DNA of 62,822 nucleotides, counting the filler, from Globobulimina sp. (Eukaryota), in the NCBI GenBank assembly GCA_003354225.1. It is 37 parts of 37 records of this genome, joined end to end, with 100 filler letters (N's around TTAATTAATTAA, not from the genome) between each part and the next. Parts side by side here need not be neighbours in the genome. Positions count along the whole stretch, not along the records: positions 34,023 to 35,622 come from PIVH01014281.1; 36 more parts are not named here. The stretch is one strand, 5' to 3'. The notes beneath the pieces are model-generated. The model was given only the letters and a program-made list of their open reading frames with translations, ran no database searches and was not told the DNA's origin. This document shows positions 8,411 through 59,610 of this stretch, piece after piece. The position numbers and the translations under genes are program-made. The stretch's first letter is position 1. Every line of letters starts with the position of its first letter.

Positions 8411-8576
8411 NNNNNNNNNNNNNNNNNNNNNNNNNNNNNNNNNNNNNNNNNNNNTTAATTAATTAANNNNNNNNNNNNNNNNNNNNNNNNNNNNNNNNNN
8501 NNNNNNNNNNTTTAAAATTTAAACTTGTTGGATCATCCCTTTTGGAAATCGGAAACTTGATTGTTGATAAAATAAA

Positions 8577-10040
8577 ATGAACTCACAAGTCTGTTCAAAT
8601 GCTATTGTAATTGATACTGGTTCTCATTCAACAAAGATTGGTTTTTCTGGAGATAATGAGCCGCAATGTATCATTCGAACAGCAACAGGAATCCTGGACA
8701 ATGCTGCTGATAAAAATAAGAATAATAATAAGAAATTTGACAAATATTTAATTGATACATCATTAAATGCATGCGATGAAAATACGATGAAACAAATCGA
8801 AATAGATTTACCATACACTGCCGGGTTTGTGCATAATATGGAATCATTGGCATCCATTTGGATGAATGCAATGAAACAAAAATTAAAACTTTCAGAGTCA
8901 GAGATAGCATCAATACCAATTTTATTATCAGAGCCATCCCATTGGAGCAATTCCTCCATTTATTGCAATTTATTTATTAAATATCGCGAGAATTATTGTA
9001 AAACAATCTTTGAAGATTTCCATGGCAGTGCGATGTATCTATGCTGCGACTCAGTGTTATCCTCTTTTTCGCATGGAAAAAAATCATCGATTGTTCTGGA
9101 TTTTGGTGGTGGATCGACGCGATGTACACCGATATATGATGGCTATGTTATAAATAATGGTTGTAAATTTAGCAAATGCGGCGGTGATTATTTTGACAAG
9201 ATATTAAGTGAGAAAATTAATATTAAGCAGGGTGTTAATGATAAGTTGCAATCATATAACCATAAGCCATCATATATGGAATTTAGTAAACATTCACTGA
9301 TTACAGATATAAAAGAGCATATTTTAAGAGTAAAAAGTGCAAAATTTGATGTTATAAATGTGAAAAATAAGACATTTGATGTTGGCGATTTAACATTTCC
9401 ATACAAAGAGAGTGATTCATATGAATTGAGTCCAGATAATAAGAAAGAAAAAGAAAATGAAATAAATGAGACTAAGGAATGTATTTATGTGTTACCCGAT
9501 GGTGAGAGCTTAGAATATGGAGATTTGCAATATTCAATCACTGAATTATTATTTATGGATTACAACAAAGATTTTGAGAATGATTTAGAGAATATTTGGA
9601 TTGATAAAATGTCAAAATTAGCCGCAAATAATAATAATAATAATGCGAATGCTTGCTATCAATTGCAAAATACACAAGAAATATGGAAAGATGTGAATTA
9701 TAAAAGGTATAAGTTCAAAGGCATTGCATCGATGGTAAACGAATCATTAAATGGATGTGATATTGACATTCGATCATTGTGCGTTGAGAATATAATAATA
9801 TGTGGTGGTCATAGTCGATATAAAGGAATTATTGAAAGAATTGGCAAGGAATTAAGTATTAACTTGCCATATTCATATAAGTATAAATTATATTTTAATG
9901 ATACACCGCGAGAAAGATTATTTGCGACATGGTTGGGTGGCTCTATATTATCGACTACTGCACATTTCCAAAATATGTGGATTACAAAAGAAGATTATAA
10001 TGAATATGGACCTACTATTGTTCATAGGAAATGTTATTAA
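8577..10040 (+). CDS. ARP4: Actin-related protein, most like nuclear ARP4/ACTL6
   Basis: IVIDTGSHSTKIGFSGDNEP, YVLPDG, CDIDIR, ICGG and ERLFATWLGGSIL..FQNMWITKEDYNEYG..IVHRKC, with large insertions typical of ARP4. Confidence 0.8.
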   Translation: MNSQVCSNAIVIDTGSHSTKIGFSGDNEPQCIIRTATGILDNAADKNKNNNKKFDKYLIDTSLNACDENTMKQIEIDLPYTAGFVHNMESLASIWMNAMKQKLKLSESEIASIPILLSEPSHWSNSSIYCNLFIKYRENYCKTIFEDFHGSAMYLCCDSVLSSFSHGKKSSIVLDFGGGSTRCTPIYDGYVINNGCKFSKCGGDYFDKILSEKINIKQGVNDKLQSYNHKPSYMEFSKHSLITDIKEHILRVKSAKFDVINVKNKTFDVGDLTFPYKESDSYELSPDNKKEKENEINETKECIYVLPDGESLEYGDLQYSITELLFMDYNKDFENDLENIWIDKMSKLAANNNNNNANACYQLQNTQEIWKDVNYKRYKFKGIASMVNESLNGCDIDIRSLCVENIIICGGHSRYKGIIERIGKELSINLPYSYKYKLYFNDTPRERLFATWLGGSILSTTAHFQNMWITKEDYNEYGPTIVHRKCY

Positions 10041-27221: not shown

Positions 27222-28822
27222 TATCTGCACAAAATGAAATTTTATTAAAAATACTTAAATCAACGTCAATAATTTCAACACAAAAAACACTACTTTTCCC
27301 ATTTGGGATGATTTCAACAATTCCGCTCCGACCAATTTCTTTTGATTCTAAGCAATATAAATCTATTTTTGCTCTTATTTTTGATAAATTATATGGAAAA
27401 GAATACATTTTTAAATTTATTAAAAATACTGATTGTTTTCTTGTATATTCACAGGATAAATACCATAATGCGTCGTAAATTTTGCTTGCAAAGTGATTAA
27501 TGTCTTGAATCTGTTTAACTTTTTTGATTAAATTTGTATCAAATTGCCATGTTATTAATTTATTTCTACTCCAATCATTAAACATTTTCTTTTTATAAAA
27601 TATAGCGTCCCAATTCTTCTTTAATGTGATACATTGAATATTTATACTCATTTTATATTCAAAAGTGAAATTAATGTTTTTTTTTGTTTGTGATAATAAT
27701 CGATTTACACGCTCTCGACTTGAAAATGTTAAAATATTTATTCGTTTTGTATTTGTTTGCATATTTTCTATCGTAATGGCTATTTTTATTTTATTCCATG
27801 ACGGTGGAATTGATAGTATTTTCAGTAAAACATAATAATTTGCTGTGTATTGCACAGACCATAATAATTTTGCAATATAATATGATTCAATATAACCAAT
27901 CTCTGCTTTAAATGTAAATTCTCCGTACGAATGCATAAAATAATCATAAATATATGACAAACAAACATAAAATATATTATCTAAACTTGTATATTTACGA
28001 ATAAATCCCAAAACAATTGTTTTTGTTCTGTCATCTAATTTATTTAAATCATGCATTTCATATTTATTGACTTGGAATTTATAATTTGGCTCAAGAAATT
28101 CATTCCATTCACGCTCAATTTTATATGGTGTCAAATTATGTTCCATTGTATCAAATTCGTCTAACATTAAAATATCTGCATAAATAACATTCGTATTTGT
28201 ATTATAATAGTCACTCATTATAGTTTTTAGTGGTATTAATTTGCTTTGTGTCTGAGTGTAAGTAAACTTTTCTTTAATTGCGATTGTATTTTTATCATTT
28301 CCATCACAGTAAAATCTAATTTGTACAGTGATTCGTTGAATATTTGTTGGCAAACAATTCAATTGCAATTTTAATGCAAATTCGCCAGAGTTACAAACAA
28401 CAATAATGGACCACATACGGTCAAATACACCGCTTTTCATACATTCCACGCATCCCTCTCTCATTTGGCTGTTATTTATATTTTCTAGTTTTTCTTTGTT
28501 TATTTTGAATGAAATGGTTTGTTGTCGTTTATAATTTGATAACAGTGATTGATATAATATGTAACTTGTTTGGTCGACATATAATTCATCGATAAAATCG
28601 ACTTCTTGATCGCATTGGATCCATTTAGCATTTTTTTTGGAAACGGCAATTCGCAATAGATTGATATTGAATGTTAATGATAATTGGTGTGTTGACTCTG
28701 TTGCAATTGGATTGATATTTATTTCACCGCAATATTCAGATATCCAGTTGGTATTAACCATTGCAATAATAAATGGGTCATATATCAAATGCTTTGACAC
28801 AATTTCGATTGAAACAACAACA
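27222..28822 (-). CDS. Multi-MATH-like domain protein fragment
   Basis: Open frame across the contig; repeats S..F...W.....L.L..LP......V; DDRTKTIVLGFIR motif resembles the gene at 24048-25082. Confidence 0.55.
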
Positions 28823-32322: not shown

Positions 32323-32854
32323 TGATGATTCGGTGTTGAATGGTATCACTTGTACAGCATATGACGTGGGCGGACATTATTCAATGCGAAGAGTCTGGAG
32401 GTTATGTTTTTATTTCCTTTAAACAACACATCATTTACATACAAAATATTAAACACTACACAGGGATCATTGTGTTGATATTGATGGCATTGTATTTTTA
32501 GTGGATGCTGCTGAACCGGAGAGATTTGATGAAGTTAAAAAAGAATTAAATATATTGCTACAAGCAAATGAATTAAAGGATGTACCATTTTTAATTTTGG
32601 GAAATAAAATCGATAAAAATGTTTAGTGATTCATTAATGTGTTTAATTATAATTAACGCATTGTAATGTGTTATATTTAGGGTGCTGTCAATGAAGAAAT
32701 GTTAAAAAAGTATTTAGGAATTACGGTAACAACAGGAAAAAATCCGAAAAAGCAAAATAATGGCATACGAAGTATGGAGGTCTTTATGTGTTCATTGAAA
32801 AAGAGGACGGGATTCCCAAAAGCTTTTGTGTGGCTAAGCAAATTAGTCAGGTAA
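32323..32854 (+). CDS. SAR1: Sar1 GTPase, 5' truncated; introns 32401-32463 and 32621-32680
   Basis: Not in the ORF track. Spliced translation reads [31 protein letters not shown]...[24 protein letters not shown]...AF.WL. Confidence 0.9.
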
Positions 32855-32989
32855 TTTAATATGAAATTATTGTCTTTTATTTATTGTTTTTTCAATTGTT
32901 TTTCATAGCGAAACACATAAAACACAAACACGATTTGATTAGTCATCAAAACATTTTAAGTATAGCTAGTGAAAACCTTGAAACTCTAA

Positions 32990-33769
32990 ATGCTTCCAAC
33001 AGCTGTAATACTTGGAGCGTCTTCCGGCATTGGTCGCGGTATCGCCATTTATTTAGCTGGTACTCAAAAATATAAACTTGCGTTGTTATCACGAAATATT
33101 GAAAAATTAAAAGAGACTGAAAAGCTATGCAGAATCAAAAATCCTTCGATTAAAACATTGATATTAAAATGTGATGCTTCAGATTCAGTGAATGTAAAAT
33201 CATGTATGGATTCAATACATTATACTTTCAGTCCATTAGCAATATTAATTAACAGTGCTGGAACATTTTATTATTCGCCAATTGATTCAAAAGATATTGA
33301 TATCAGCAAAGTAAACGAACAAATCGATGTTGATATAAAAGGATTAATGTTTTCATGCATTTATAGTATCGATCATATTAAAAACACAAAGAAATTATAT
33401 CCCAATATACCCTGTTCAATAATATCAATTTCTGGAAGAAGTGCGACACTGCGGGGCTTACCCTCTGGTTTCGCAATGTATGTTTCCGCATTATGCGCAA
33501 AAAGAGGATTTATGGATGTTGTATATAAAGATTTACATAAATATGGCATTAAAACATGTTTAATAATGCCGGGGGTTGTTAATACTCCAATGTCTGAGTT
33601 TTATTATAAAGAGAAACAACAAGCAATTCAAACAAATGATATTGGCTATGTTGTTGAAGCAATATTAAATTCCCCGCATACTATAGTACCGTTTGAACTT
33701 GTCTTAGAACCACAATACGATCAAGATCAACCAAGTCAAGTTTATAATGCAGTTCATTCAAAATTGTAA
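32990..33769 (+). CDS. Short-chain dehydrogenase/reductase with PTS1 signal
   Basis: GASSGIG, LINSAG, PG.VNT; ends in SKL. Confidence 0.9.
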   Translation: MLPTAVILGASSGIGRGIAIYLAGTQKYKLALLSRNIEKLKETEKLCRIKNPSIKTLILKCDASDSVNVKSCMDSIHYTFSPLAILINSAGTFYYSPIDSKDIDISKVNEQIDVDIKGLMFSCIYSIDHIKNTKKLYPNIPCSIISISGRSATLRGLPSGFAMYVSALCAKRGFMDVVYKDLHKYGIKTCLIMPGVVNTPMSEFYYKEKQQAIQTNDIGYVVEAILNSPHTIVPFELVLEPQYDQDQPSQVYNAVHSKL

Positions 33770-34064
33770 ACAAGAATTATTAAACAAGAAACTTTTAAGA
33801 CAGTAAATAATTGACATTCGTTTTGTGTTTGTAAGGAACTGACCTTTTATCCTAAATCCTCTTGATTTATTGTATCTAACTTATTAGGTACTCCTTACTT
33901 TAAAACTTTACTTAAAAACCCTNNNNNNNNNNNNNNNNNNNNNNNNNNNNNNNNNNNNNNNNNNNNTTAATTAATTAANNNNNNNNNNNNNNNNNNNNNN
34001 NNNNNNNNNNNNNNNNNNNNNNATTTTATGTCATTTTTATATAATATAAATACAAATATATACA

Positions 34065-35622
34065 GCAGAAGAAAATACTGTTTGTGGTGGTGTACGTAGT
34101 AAAGCATACAAACAGTCTGCAATTAGTTTTTATTTACATACACATTATCAATGTTCCATCACATTTGATGCGTCAGCTTCTGATTTTAGCATTGGTTCAA
34201 TCACCGCAATTGCAAAAGGCGATTATTATCATAATTCCACAGTGATTGCAAACACGACTGCAAATAAATTAACATTAGTGAACCAGCCGCGTGGCACATA
34301 TTTTTTTATTTTAGAAGCAGCCAATCCAGACACAATTGGCACGTATCATTGTAGCATTAGTTGTGGATACGAAATATTTAATAGACACATTAGACAAAGG
34401 CCTGATTACGAGACCGAAAGATATTTCATATCGCAACATGGCGTTGTAAATGATTCTATTTTTGTGAACCAATATATCCAACAACGGATAGTCTCAAATG
34501 ACATTTTGCTGCAAAATACAATTAAAGAATATACCTCCTTACAAATGACAGATAGAATGAAGAACATCTATCAATTGAGCACATCTTATGAAAATTTAAC
34601 TAATTACGATATTTTATCCACTTTACACTTAAACGATATTCCACCGTTTATTCAAGGCGGTATGGTACGAGATCTGTTATTAGGCATTGACGCAAATGAT
34701 ATGGACGTGGTGGTTTACTGCAATATGTCCGCATTAAACCAAACTGTAAACAAATTAGGTTGGAGTCATTACTGTGGCGGTGGGGATCCGCCGTTTATTT
34801 TATTCCTGGACACGATGGGCATAGATATTTCTATCGCCGATGGACAATTAGGTACCGAGTACGATGTAAACGACGCGCGTTGGAACTATGTAAATAACAG
34901 TTTGCTAATCTCAAATAGCACTTTGTATGCCATTAATAACCGATTAATTTCTGCCAAGTCATATGAGCCATTGTTTCATGAATGGTGTTTCCTGAAACGT
35001 CACGTGCGTGATTTTGCCGGTGAGATTTGTTTGTGGAAAATATTACGAGCGTGGAAACTGAGAATTGCTCCAAAATTCTTCAAATGGGACTATTCTTTGT
35101 GGAGCTGGATAAAATCTACAATAATTACAGAATTTGTGTATCAGACAAATGCAACATTAGCTGCGTCATACAAAAAAGTGCTGTTGACATTCTTTAACAG
35201 CGAACATTGGTCTTTCAGAAGCCCGTTGATTTTGTACCAAATGAAATTAGATTTAGGGGAGAAACTATTCAAATTATTTATACCTGAAACAGTTTTAGAG
35301 TCTCAACAACGGACTGTAGACAAATTGGAGAAGTACGATCCTTATAAATGGGCAATGAAATGCGATGACGAGTTATTAATCTGTGATATTGAAAAGGTGG
35401 ACACAGAAACAACTGGCAATATATTGTTTGATCGCGATGTAGATCCGAGTAAAATTAATGGCTTAGAATTAAATAATTTTATATTAATTTGTGTTGCTGC
35501 GTTTATGATAGGAAGTGTTTTTGTTATAAGTTTAATGCATTCACATAAATGTTGTAGTTGTTGCGGAAGAAGGCAGCAATATGAAGTAAATGAGACAGCG
35601 GGTGGTATGAATGAAGGCCTCG
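34065..35622 (+). CDS. Single-pass membrane protein containing a class II (CCA/poly(A) polymerase-like) nucleotidyltransferase domain; truncated at both ends
   Basis: FIQGGMVRDLLLGIDANDMDVVV signature; N-terminal Cys-bounded beta domain; TM FILICVAAFMIGSVFVISLM near the end. Confidence 0.7.
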
Positions 35623-49322: not shown

Positions 49323-50922
49323 CCCGGCCGTGGATACACTATCCGTGGCACTCAAATTGGGTTTATTCGCAGATCCGTTGCCAGAAAAGGACGTAAACGG
49401 TCCCTGCGAGTCGATTGGCTGCAATATCTGTCTGTTATCGTTCACTAAGGTTTGCCGTGGCGATTTCTTGAAAACAACTTGAAAATGCTGATGCTTTAAG
49501 ATCTGCACAGCTTTGGAGGCCGTCGCATTGTCCTCGAAAATAGCCTCAACCTTTTTATTATCGCCTTGCAACTCATGATTCATCACCAAGTGTGGTATTA
49601 TTTTGATTGGTGAAAATGGACCAAAACACAGTTTTGTTTGCTCATTGCTCATGTTTGTGGGTACATAAAATTCAATGATTCTGGAATAGAGACAACGAGG
49701 CGACATTAACTCGCCAGCACCGCCGGGTTCATCCATCAATGACTCATCCTCGACAATCAGATTATGGCTGATATCAATCTCTGAGTCGATGGATAGCGTC
49801 GAAAAGCGGGGCTTATTGTGTCCATTTGAAATTATATTATTATTATTTCCAAATTTGCTCACAGTTAATATCATATCCGCCGCTTCGAACTCATCCGTGG
49901 TAGTCTCGTCCGGCGCAGCTTCCATCCCCACGATGATCTCATTGTCGCTCTCAGCGGATCGCATATTCAATAATTGCAATTTACGCTCATTTATATCCAC
50001 ACTGTTGGTATGCGCCGCATTTTTAGCATAGGCATCGTGGCCATGACGCCGTCTCTCTTTCGGTTCAGGCGATTCTTCCTCGGTTTGCGTGACGGCATTG
50101 TTGTATACTTCATAGTCGTCCAATACTTCCATATCTTCATCGTCAGAATAACTGCGTTTTTTATTTTTGTTTAGTTTGTTCCTTCGCCTCTGCCGATTGT
50201 GGGTATTGGGTGAGGGCAAATCGACGGTTTTATGCGTCGTTTGTAGGGCATTTGAAGACAATGTGTCCTGGTCCTTTAACAATAATTTATCGGTGTATTT
50301 ATTATTGTTATTCTTGTTTTTATTATTATTAATAGTGAGGGAAAGCGGTGATGGCTGCTGATACTTGTCAAGATTTATGATGTTTGAGGCAGAGATTGTG
50401 GTGGAAAGCGAGGCTGCCGTCGGTGTGCCAATATTAATATAGCTGCGATATTCGTGCTTGCGGATTTGCTTAGAAGTCAAAGGCGGTGAGTTTTGGAAAT
50501 TGCTGGGTGGCGAAGTGCGGATTTGCTTCATTTGCAAGCCTTTTTTATTCTTTTTCTTCTTCTTCTTGTTATTTTCATCGATAATGGCCTGGGAATGGTG
50601 CGCTTTGTTGCTATGATTGTGGTTGTGGTGGTTTTGATGCTCGCGATATGTATTTGGATATTCACCATTCGAGTCTGGCGAATCTAAATCGTCATTCTGA
50701 TTGGCGGAATATTTGCGTTTTCTTTTTGTGATGGGGCTGGAATGCGAATGCACGGAATTCGATGGAGAATACCATTGGTCGCGATGTTGATGTCCGCCAT
50801 GATGATGGTTCTGGTTATTGCCATTCTTGCGATTTTTTTTATGTTTATTTTTGCCTTTCTTTGGTTTATGCGAGTGATGATTGCCTGCTTTATCTGCTCC
50901 GGAATCGCCAGAATACGCAGCA
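49323..50922 (-). CDS. Low-complexity protein with a possible RRM-like domain, fragment
   Basis: Long open frame; RIIEFYVP.....E.....F.PF..I..VEAIFED...A..AV..L has an RRM-like beta-alpha pattern. Confidence 0.55.
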
Positions 50923-57822: not shown

Positions 57823-59395
57823 CATAGCCAAGGAATGCAAACACACTTTCAACCATAATTTCATGTCCATTATGGATATGAGTGTCTAATATATGATGGT
57901 AATCTTTGTCCACAATGTCAATATCCACAGTCAAACATTCACCAAATTCTTGTCTCTGAGCATGTCGCTTCAATTCATTCATTATCATTCGATGTAATTT
58001 CGCACCGAAAGCTGGTTTGATTTTGGTGTGTTTCTCCACTAATTTTGCCCATTCAGCACGTGGTAATTGCACAAACTTTTGCATATTATTTATATCCGCA
58101 TTGCCATCCACCATTTGAGCCAATAATTGCACAGCATTTTGGTCAATGTATTTTGCCGATTTTGCAGACTCAATAACTACGCGTTTGAGAACATCATTAT
58201 TCACAAATGTTGCCATATCAACTTTTGCTGTGTTGCCGCTAGTTTGCCGGCCTACATTCTGTAGCCATCGTTTATAAATTATCAAATATTTCGCCAATCT
58301 CAATATGGACGGACATGGTTTGTTGTCCTTACTGTCAATATTTGCACATTTTAAATCGAAGGAGACATTTTTTTGTGCAATCGCAGTTTGAATAAATTGG
58401 TCAATGTCCTTGGCCTCATTTTCGTGAATTGATTGCATTGCAACATTATTAGGCATAGCCATAGTATACGTATCGCGTCCTTTGAGCTGAAGAATGATGG
58501 AATCCATTTGTTGAATGCCACATAAGCTGCAAATGGAGACTTTTGTAGTCATTCTGCTCCCAATCATTTGAATATGATTAAAGTTTCCACACTGACTACA
58601 CACCCAATTTCTATGCTTATTCACTGGACTTAGTCTCGAATACGTATACGTTGATGATAATATATTATATTTTGTGTCGTAATAATCATTGTGCTTCGCC
58701 ATGAAACACTGTGCGATCGATTCATAGATCTTTTCTTTATTTTGGACAATTAAGTCATGCACCAAATTGACGATTGTGTCGCTAAAATGTGCGACAGTTT
58801 GCCCATTTTTTATTTTATAGTGTAATTCTTCAACGTCAAATTGAGGAATAATCTGATTTTTAAAATCAGGAATGAATAAGGCCAATGATTTAATATTTGC
58901 TATATTTTGTATAATTTGCTGTTGTGTAAATGTGTTGTTTCTAAATAAAACAGAATGAATTTGATAAATATCTTCTTTATCCCAACCGGTAACCTTTTCC
59001 ATCCAACGTTTATTTTGTTGGTAATATTGAATATATTTCTGGCCATTTATAGTATCATTACTGTCATTGATCCGATTTAAGAGACTATTTAAAGGATAAT
59101 TATATAAAATGTAAGCAATTTCTTCTGCGGTTTTGGTTTCGAGACTTTTATTATTTTTCCATTTATGCAAATCATGAAACATAATATTGAATGTCTTATA
59201 TGTCATAAATGTCAATAATTCGGTTTCTAACATACGTTTTACATTTTTTAATGGCTGTTCGCTAATTAATTTGCCAGATAATGAATGCTGAGATAATATT
59301 TGTATTGTTTTTGAAAGATATTTTTTATACTTTATATCATTATAAACCCACAATTTTATCGTATTGCAAATATCATTATTACTAAATTGATGCAA
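57823..59395 (-). CDS. Large uncharacterised protein with RanBP2-like zinc finger, fragment
   Basis: WVCSQCGNFN...CSLCG; CPSILRL...L..Y and DYHHIL..H motifs. Confidence 0.7.
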
Positions 59396-59610
59396 TGGTA
59401 AACATTTTATTTTGTTGATTTTNNNNNNNNNNNNNNNNNNNNNNNNNNNNNNNNNNNNNNNNNNNNTTAATTAATTAANNNNNNNNNNNNNNNNNNNNNN
59501 NNNNNNNNNNNNNNNNNNNNNNAAGCAAACATCAAATTTAATTTATTTTGTTCTGTACGTCTTGACAAGTCGAAATTTTTTGGTAATACATATAAAGAGT
59601 ACTTGTGAAC

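Follow-up and report, generated by a model that had tools for sequence, protein, structure and literature searches.

How does the catalytic signature of an RNA-tailing enzyme come to lie between a Cys-bounded module and a transmembrane (TM) helix, and what could it do there? The question is raised by one contig of Globobulimina sp., at positions 34023-35622 of the window analysed here (a stretch of DNA of 62,822 bases; coordinates count along it, and the features of this contig are all on the + strand). To our knowledge, class II nucleotidyltransferases (NTases) have been described only as soluble intracellular RNA enzymes. A preliminary description of this DNA had noted the class II signature GGMVRDLLLG....DMD in the long frame of the contig, whose translation from 34065-35621 gives a 519-aa protein, P0001. 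The signature is found at residues 198-214, and class II homology is supported by Pfam, by profile comparison with the Protein Data Bank (PDB) and by hhalign. These comparisons identify P0001 as a homologous member of the class II NTase superfamily that lacks the features that mark CCA-adding enzymes and poly(A) polymerases, namely the RRD and EDxxR motifs, the BxA motif with its flexible loop, and the body/tail domain. As argued below from sequence, P0001 is most likely a luminal or outward-facing, membrane-anchored and metal-dependent transferase, not a tRNA- or RNA-tailing enzyme.

An exhaustive phmmer search of 1.84 billion representatives returned 20 proteins at E <= 1e-3. The module alone (residues ~5-110) was matched by 17 of them, and the NTase-like part by the other three, P0007 (449 aa, E 4e-9, residues 183-433), P0012 (378 aa) and P0013 (340 aa). 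P0023 and P0024 were added with P0007 as the query. These five members are only 24-26 % identical to P0001. No protein more than ~36 % identical over the NTase part was found in the exhaustive search, so the missing N-terminus of P0001 is not supplied by an orthologue. A word-index protein search with P0001 in a similar-length range gave no matches, and profile A2 returned only P0007. The metagenome scan with alignment A3 (68 pattern matches) and the viral contig scan (314 pattern matches) each yielded no relatives, and the metagenome scan with A5 yielded a single locus, L004. It should be mentioned that L004 carries a P0024-type member at 124-1259, in which the called protein ends in a TLTLTL-type stretch and a second frame (999-1259) continues with RIPPKSF...IDLG. 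This continuation indicates that the gene caller missed an intron or a frameshift near 960-1000 and that the P0024 model is too short.

The Pfam family PolyA_pol (PF01743) matched P0001 at E 2.1e-4 with 22.0 bits, over positions 2-36 of the 126 in the profile; the gathering cut-off is 23 bits. The match to PolyA_pol that the preliminary description anticipated is therefore short of the cut-off for P0001 itself, and it is obtained for all three of the relatives scored (P0007, 25.6 bits; P0012, 26.7 bits; P0013, 29.3 bits), with P0012 spanning profile positions 3-125 of 126. As a single sequence, P0001 had best PDB matches at E 0.12-0.25. With a four-member profile, all 16 PDB matches at E <= 1 were class II NTases (CCA-adding enzymes, A-adding enzymes and poly(A) polymerases), the best being 6ibp with E 2.3e-7 over 134 profile positions. 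When the six members were compared by hhalign with 60 gammaproteobacterial Cca heads and E. coli PcnB, a match of 96.8 % probability and E 2.4e-10 was obtained over 169 columns, covering P0001 residues 183-375, through the first neck helix. The family phrog_1614, annotated as 'nucleotidyltransferase', matched all five members tested at E 2e-5 to 0.01, with E 2e-5 for P0001. No other Pfam family was found in P0001 at E <= 10 (LicD, Gad2 and PolyA_pol_RNAbd included), and none of the PADLOC families was found among five members. The ESM Atlas returned prokaryotic and viral look-alikes at 0.92 for residues 161-430, which are leads and not evidence because only 143-153 features are shared, and no usable match for the whole of P0001. 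Since the family profiles hit only class II NTases and the relatives pass the Pfam cut-off, homology was accepted; on these profile comparisons the P0001 domain is genuinely, if very distantly, related to the head and neck of the class II NTases. The head itself, delimited by Pfam, the PDB profile and hhalign, spans residues 183-300 (34611-34964).

Structure prediction was carried out with AlphaFold. A mixed alignment of 63 rows (5 family members and 58 Cca sequences) gave model m8e52d137db06 with pLDDT 79 and pTM 0.78, for which the best Foldseek matches are A-adding and CCA-adding enzymes (E 4e-7). In VIA the model aligns to 3h39 with Z 14.2 and rmsd 3.8 over 209 residues, followed by near-ties with 1miv, 3aql and FAM46B/C (Z 13.7-14.0) and then a drop to Cid1 at Z 5.2. 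The prediction thus shows the P0001 sequence to be compatible with a head-neck fold. It also adds a helical extension at 340-425 and, close to the membrane, a hairpin that includes Cys433 and Cys440.

Class II tRNA NTases and bacterial poly(A) polymerases (PF01743; 6ibp, 3h39, 1miv, 3aql; E. coli Cca, PcnB) have in common with P0001 motif A, GGxVRDxLLG...DxD, the Asn of motif B and the LR..R...R ladder of the neck. The likeness extends over the head plus neck, with the hhalign match of 96.8 % over 169 columns and VIA Z scores of 13-14 over 205-222 residues, the latter from a model whose alignment is mostly Cca. Motif A of P0001, GGMVRDLLLGIDANDMD, lies at 34656-34706 and includes G198, G199, R202, D203, D212 and D214. 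The motif A pattern hG[GS]x9-13Dh[DE]h with two carboxylates, as defined in bioRxiv 10.1101/2023.12.02.569716, is matched by QGGMVRDLLLGIDANDMDVVV. Residues G198, G199, R202, D203, L206, D212, D214, C219, G240, E265, Y266, N269, W307, R328 and L397 are invariant in the six members, and G198, G199, R202, D203, D214, N269 and R328 remain invariant across all 63 rows, Cca included. The third carboxylate of the NTase fold sits on the strand after the DxD helix. A candidate in P0001 is D249 (34809-34811), which follows a hydrophobic residue on that strand, in a column that is acidic in all six members (D in P0001 and E, E, E, E and D in the others).

The position of motif B is occupied by E265-Y-D-V-N269 (34857-34871), where E265-Y-x-x-N269 aligns with RRDFTIN of 6ibp and of Cca. 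G-T-E265 stands at R-R-D, so that both Arg are lost, and the acidic residue and the Asn are kept in all six members. The first neck helix, K325-ILRAWKLRIAPKFF-339 (35037-35081), is a family signature at the place of EDxxR..LR..RF. It has no ED, and the Arg of EDxxR is replaced by K325, a Lys in five of the six members and a Ser in P0012. R328, K331 and R333 fall on R137, R140 and R144 of Cca in the hhalign alignment. The preliminary description had read this region in much the same way: the absence of RRD, the placing of EYDVN at D.T.N and the likeness of KILRAW (residues 325-330) to R.LRA all hold in the alignments, the last against R-x-L-R-x-A of the EDxxR helix. Aligned with Cca, P0001 shows a deletion or replacement where the BxA motif and the flexible loop would be, and the spacing from D214 to E265 is 51 residues, versus 69 from D23 to D92 in E. 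coli Cca. No Pfam family for a body/tail RNA-binding domain was found in P0001 (E <= 10) or in P0007, P0012 and P0013 (E <= 0.01), and the distance from motif A to the TM helix is only ~270 residues. Between them lies a helical region, residues 340-427 (35082-35345; pLDDT 81-91 in the mixed-alignment model), with K371 and M393-x-x-D-L-G398 conserved; in A1, an alignment of four sequences, K371, M393 and D396-L-G398 do not vary, and across six members this holds only for L397.

According to PMC2910056 and PMC7014341, RRD serves ribose recognition and EDxxR acts as a template for the base, while the 3' end of the tRNA is positioned by BxA and CTP/ATP specificity is switched by the flexible loop. 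Unlike the class II enzymes, P0001 has x-x-E for RRD, a Lys without ED for the Arg of EDxxR, no BxA or loop, and no detected body or tail. As far as the alignments can tell, the core that holds the metal and the nucleotide is kept and the known adaptations to tRNA or RNA and to CTP/ATP are gone. With the readers of ribose, base and primer lost, the donor and acceptor need not match those of the CCA-adding and poly(A) enzymes. A second group of comparison is formed by the bacterial and phage stand-alone PolyA_pol heads (phrog_1614 and Gad2 PF26128 clusters), which have a similar NTase unit of head and neck, ~230-320 aa in size. These are prokaryotic or viral and cytoplasmic, whereas introns, sequons, TM anchors and signal-like starts mark the P0001 family.

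The P0001 core is flanked by a surface module on one side and by a TM helix on the other, and its relatives have signal-like N-termini, whereas the known class II members are soluble and intracellular. On which side of the membrane would such a core lie? The N-terminal module (residues 5-101; 34077-34367) is the Cys-bounded, beta-rich unit that had been noted earlier, and the first ~100 residues are indeed bounded by Cys7/Cys30 and Cys96/Cys100. No Pfam family was found for it; antibody V domains are its PDB matches at E 0.8-1.4 only, and no likeness is claimed to these or to pre-peptidase C-terminal domains. Elsewhere it recurs as a repeated surface module, as in P0002, where it is present at least eight times (eight matched stretches), with Pro/Thr linkers in between. 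The module proteins also carry LRR, VWD, PAN, lectin, ILEI and PT-repeat regions. A single TM-like segment follows the module C-terminally in 11 of the 17, with a SAM domain after the TM in five of those, and the VWD, LRR, PAN and lectin domains are on the module's side of the TM. Among the 11 module proteins looked up, seven come from the foraminifer Nonionella stella in EukProt, where the module is found in many type I membrane proteins with a cytoplasmic SAM domain. The module seems to be a building block of surface proteins in foraminifera-like protists that has not been characterised before.

The module of P0001 is followed by a linker and an N-terminal helical extension (residues 102-182; 34368-34610), with the sequons NDS and NLT and with helices in the model. 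This part can be aligned to the sequence that precedes the head in P0007, P0012 and P0013, and its S158 is invariant in A1. C-terminal of the helical region described above, a membrane-proximal beta hairpin (35346-35399; two strands in the model) contains Cys433 and Cys440, a pair common to P0007 and P0023. The single TM helix, residues 471-491 (35475-35537), reaches a Kyte-Doolittle 19-residue mean of 2.77, and no other segment of P0001 exceeds 1.2. Because there is no hydrophobic segment between them, the module and the NTase-like domain are placed on the same side. The helix is followed by HSHKCCSCCGRRQQ, and the Cys cluster expected after it from the preliminary description is the CCxCC of the presumed cytoplasmic tail. 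This tail begins with HSHKCCSCCGRRQQYEVNETAGGMNEGL (35538-35621), is basic and is cut by the contig end. The C-terminal flank of the helix, HKCCSCCGRR, is rich in K/R and the N-terminal flank, DRDVDPSKINGLELNN, is acidic, the arrangement of a single-TM type I protein. The richness in sequons before the TM is likewise borne out, with nine N-x-S/T sites counted (NST, NTT, NDS, NLT, NMS, NQT, NNS, NST and NAT) versus 4.3 +/- 1.9 in composition-preserving shuffles, and six Cys lie between the module and the TM.

The relatives add to this picture. An N-terminal hydrophobic peak of 1.77-3.12 is present in four of the five NTase-like relatives, and the highest value among 77 Cca proteins of bacteria, used as controls, is 1.71; the peak of the P0024-type member, 2.98, was taken from an upstream start in L004. 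P0013 has no hydrophobic start, and its start may be wrongly called. In P0007 the NTase-like part is followed by a C-terminal TM, as in P0001. The Nonionella stella entries among the module proteins agree with the preliminary description in pointing to Rhizaria. Considering the side of the module, the starts of the relatives, the TM of P0007, the flank charges and the sequons, we infer an outward or luminal position as the most economical topology.

The gene model was examined against contigs of public runs. The contig opens with the 3' end of an AT-rich intron (34023-34064), which has an in-frame stop at 34047-34049 and an AG acceptor at 34064-34065. From 34050 the frame is open to the last base of the contig, 35622 (524 codons in translation). 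The coding exon, 34065-35622, comprises 519 codons without interruption and runs off the 3' end of the contig; its 5' border is ambiguous by one base (34065/34066). For the span 34065-35622 given previously, the first position is thus a real exon start, and the last is the end of the contig, not of the gene. The stretch is present in contigs of public runs from four studies, and four runs (X1, X5, X6 and X7) were compared. In the X1, X5 and X6 contigs the match begins at 34065, and the sequence before it diverges from the window and is common to them and in frame (unmatched ends of 255, 255 and 102 letters). The 30 upstream letters visible, read by hand in frame, give LAPTRNPEYN without a stop, a Pro/Thr-type linker resembling those that precede each module in P0002. 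The break at 34065 looks like the splice junction of a transcript, which suggests that the run contigs were derived from cDNA. Upstream of the window the transcript sequence extends by 1258 letters in the X1 contig and by 1160 in the X5 contig, which places ~400 further codons 5' of the window. Downstream of 35622 it extends by 526 letters in the X6 contig and by 635 in the X7 contig.

The possibility of a chimeric contig, raised earlier, was examined in the same data. One X1 contig (34065-35362) bridges the border from module to neck, and one X7 contig (35018-35622 and then 635 letters further) bridges that from neck to TM and tail; the gap at 35363-35372 is unbridged in the X1 and X5 contigs and bridged in those of X6 and X7. 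Since every domain border is spanned by a single contig of another run, the window's contig is no chimera. The X6 and X7 copies are ~5-6 % diverged (39 differences in 680 letters and 36 in 605) and represent either a second allele, a paralogue or a close relative. It is noted that one of X6 and X7 has the same organism code as the run with the near-identical copy. Among the 40 base differences listed, out of 108, 20 are synonymous and 21 fall at third codon places; those in the conserved head are all synonymous, and four non-synonymous changes are grouped at residues 314-318, in a stretch that is longer in P0001 than in most of its relatives. This excess of synonymous and third-place changes among the listed differences is as expected for a gene under purifying selection. 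P0001 is encoded by an internal exon of a spliced, intact gene of an AT-rich protist.

We propose the following function. P0001 would be a type I membrane glycoprotein whose extracytoplasmic part resides in the secretory lumen and then at the cell surface. Its ectodomain would consist of at least one Cys-bounded beta module followed by a minimal class II NTase core of head and neck only. The GG/RD residues, the DxD pair and the third acid would hold a metal-nucleotide donor, in a core that also keeps the motif B Asn and the basic ladder of the first neck helix. The donor would be an NTP or an NDP-linked group. An acceptor other than tRNA, located in the secretory lumen or on the cell surface, would attack its alpha-phosphate with a hydroxyl and take over a nucleotidyl or phospho-linked group. 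That the domain is both outward-facing and catalytically competent is, on balance, probable, although not by a wide measure. The gene structure, the order of the domains and their homology are established by the data; catalysis, donor and acceptor are conjecture. The earlier proposal of an RNA-tailing fold repurposed for the secretory pathway or cell surface is supported as far as class II homology and the indirect signs of topology suggest it, with 'repurposed' itself going beyond them.

A number of points weigh against the proposal. The sequon excess is modest, 9 against 4.3 expected, and was equalled in 35 of 2000 shuffles. The family has a total of six NTase-like members found, all without protein names. 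P0001 alone is below the Pfam cut-off, with only 35 of the 126 profile positions matched, and AlphaFold with the four-member family alignment gave pLDDT 31; the mixed model is not an independent fold test because 58 of its 63 rows are bacterial Cca. For D249 as third carboxylate, the register relative to Cca is ambiguous and the pLDDT of the model is 51-62 at this place. The stretch DPTG.GV.D of the motif C region, kept by the five relatives, is gone in P0001, which has the sequons NNS and NST there and may therefore be the least enzyme-like member. The 5' exons lie outside the window, and no signal peptide is seen for P0001 itself. The runs with the splice-like break at 34065 have no RNA record, and no RNA data set is listed for the stretch.

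Some of these points would fit an outward-facing pseudoenzyme, which would bind nucleotides or other ligands as part of a receptor or adhesion protein at the surface, for instance as an extracellular nucleotide sensor. The uncertain placement of the third carboxylate and the loss of RRD, of the ED of EDxxR, of BxA and the loop and, unlike in the five relatives, of DPTG.GV.D are all consistent with a domain that has ceased to catalyse. The build of P0001 also resembles that of the receptor-type foraminiferal module proteins, with signal, modules, TM and cytoplasmic SAM, and the transcript of at least 526 letters past the contig leaves room for a signalling tail. What argues against a pseudoenzyme is that GG, RD, DxD, the acidic column of D249, N269 and R328 are kept at such low identity among the six members. 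The retention of metal- and phosphate-binding residues at 24-26 % identity is the pattern expected if selection has maintained catalysis or, at the least, the binding of a metal-nucleotide complex. We regard the pseudoenzyme as unlikely, but as an alternative to be taken seriously.

Alternatively, the NTase-like domain could be cytosolic, in a membrane-tethered RNA-tailing enzyme anchored by the C-proximal helix. RNA in the cytosol or in organelles is the substrate of every characterised class II NTase and of the FAM46/TENT5 proteins, and the signal peptide not seen for P0001, with its 5' exons beyond the window, leaves room for such a topology. The FAM46/TENT5 structures (6jyj, 6w38 and 8exe) tie with the P0001 model in VIA through their two-lobed shape of NTase and helical parts (Z 13.3-14.0, 219-226 residues, rmsd 3.4-4.1), the best reaching the same level (Z 14.0) as the CCA enzymes. 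FAM46 resembles the bacterial class II enzymes, and the tie may reflect only this likeness. FAM46 proteins are cytosolic or nuclear RNA enzymes, and P0001 differs from them in having no Pfam match to the family at E <= 10. Against a cytosolic domain stand the adjoining module, non-cytoplasmic in 11 of the 17 relatives that carry it, and the signal-like starts in four of the five NTase-like relatives. The K/R residues and CCxCC after the TM with acidic residues before it, and the nine sequons and six Cys, point the same way. The absence of the RNA-binding body/tail, BxA, loop, RRD and ED argues further against RNA tailing, and we consider the cytosolic arrangement improbable. A chance GGxVRD..DxD-like string in an unrelated fold, or a frame that is not a gene, could draw on the sub-threshold 35-residue Pfam match, the single-sequence PDB values and the family-only pLDDT of 31, but it is largely refuted, and has a very small probability, in view of the family profiles that reach 134-169 columns (E 2.3e-7 and 2.4e-10) in class II NTases only, the relatives above the Pfam cut-off, the 524 open codons, the contigs of four studies and the synonymous excess.

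The remainder of the window gives the genomic background. The window strings together 37 contigs, each 1600-1602 bases long, with 36 N...TTAATTAATTAA...N linkers between them. Since the contigs are unrelated and merely joined, nothing beyond 34023-35622 is a genomic neighbour of the NTase-like gene, and the NTase-like finding is confined to that one contig. The tblastn search for a paralogue of P0001 in the other 36 contigs found none (best E 1.4). The GC content of the contigs, ~30-37 %, and the Pfam domains in long frames of the other contigs (actin, tubulin, kelch, BTB, RPEL, Sfi1 and ABC-transporter) indicate a fragmented assembly of an AT-rich eukaryote as the source. At 8571-10037 (+) there is an uninterrupted actin-like frame of 489 aa (Pfam Actin E 2.3e-84, profile positions 5-409 over residues 10-488); being ~80 residues longer than the profile, it must contain insertions. 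Three contigs, 27223-28821 (-), 49323-50921 (-) and 57824-59422 (-), are open throughout with 533 codons each and gave no Pfam match at E <= 1e-5; each has the appearance of a fragment of some large unknown protein. The contig that precedes the NTase-like one in the window, 32323-33922, carries a short-chain dehydrogenase without introns at 32990-33766 (adh_short E 3.8e-23), upstream of which, as judged by eye only, are exon-like pieces of a small GTPase with short AT-rich introns between them.

A luminal transferase with an NTase fold would not be without parallel. Fukutin and FKRP are type II Golgi proteins. With LicD they provide a working analogy for P0001, that of a pol-beta-type DxD NTase fold, membrane-anchored in the secretory lumen, which uses a nucleotide-activated donor and a non-nucleic-acid acceptor. 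Fukutin and FKRP are classed as NTase-fold proteins by Kuchta et al. 2009 (PMC2794190). They differ from P0001, for which no sequence relation was detected (no LicD family at E <= 10) and which would be type I and of class II RNA-tailing descent. Searches of the open literature, subscription journals being outside the coverage, found no account of a class II NTase that is secreted or anchored in a membrane; an unrelated preprint on cytoplasmic Pandoravirus proteins was returned. The architecture and probable compartment of P0001 are new.

More speculatively, and with considerable doubt, the sequence comparisons may mean that a small protist family took the class II core into the secretory pathway. 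There it would serve as a new luminal or surface nucleotidyl- or phospho-transferase acting on glycans, proteins or even extracellular or surface RNA, independent of fukutin, FKRP and LicD and, in the present case, fused to foraminiferal surface modules. If the P0001 domain is active outside the cytosol, it would represent a second, independent lineage of NTase-fold enzymes in the secretory pathway and would show which class II core residues nucleotide chemistry needs once RNA recognition has been removed. It would also suggest that foraminifera-like protists modify their cell surface or test-forming matrix in a way so far unknown. Were it a pseudoenzyme, it would still show clearly how the fold of an RNA enzyme has been recruited to serve as a module of a surface receptor.

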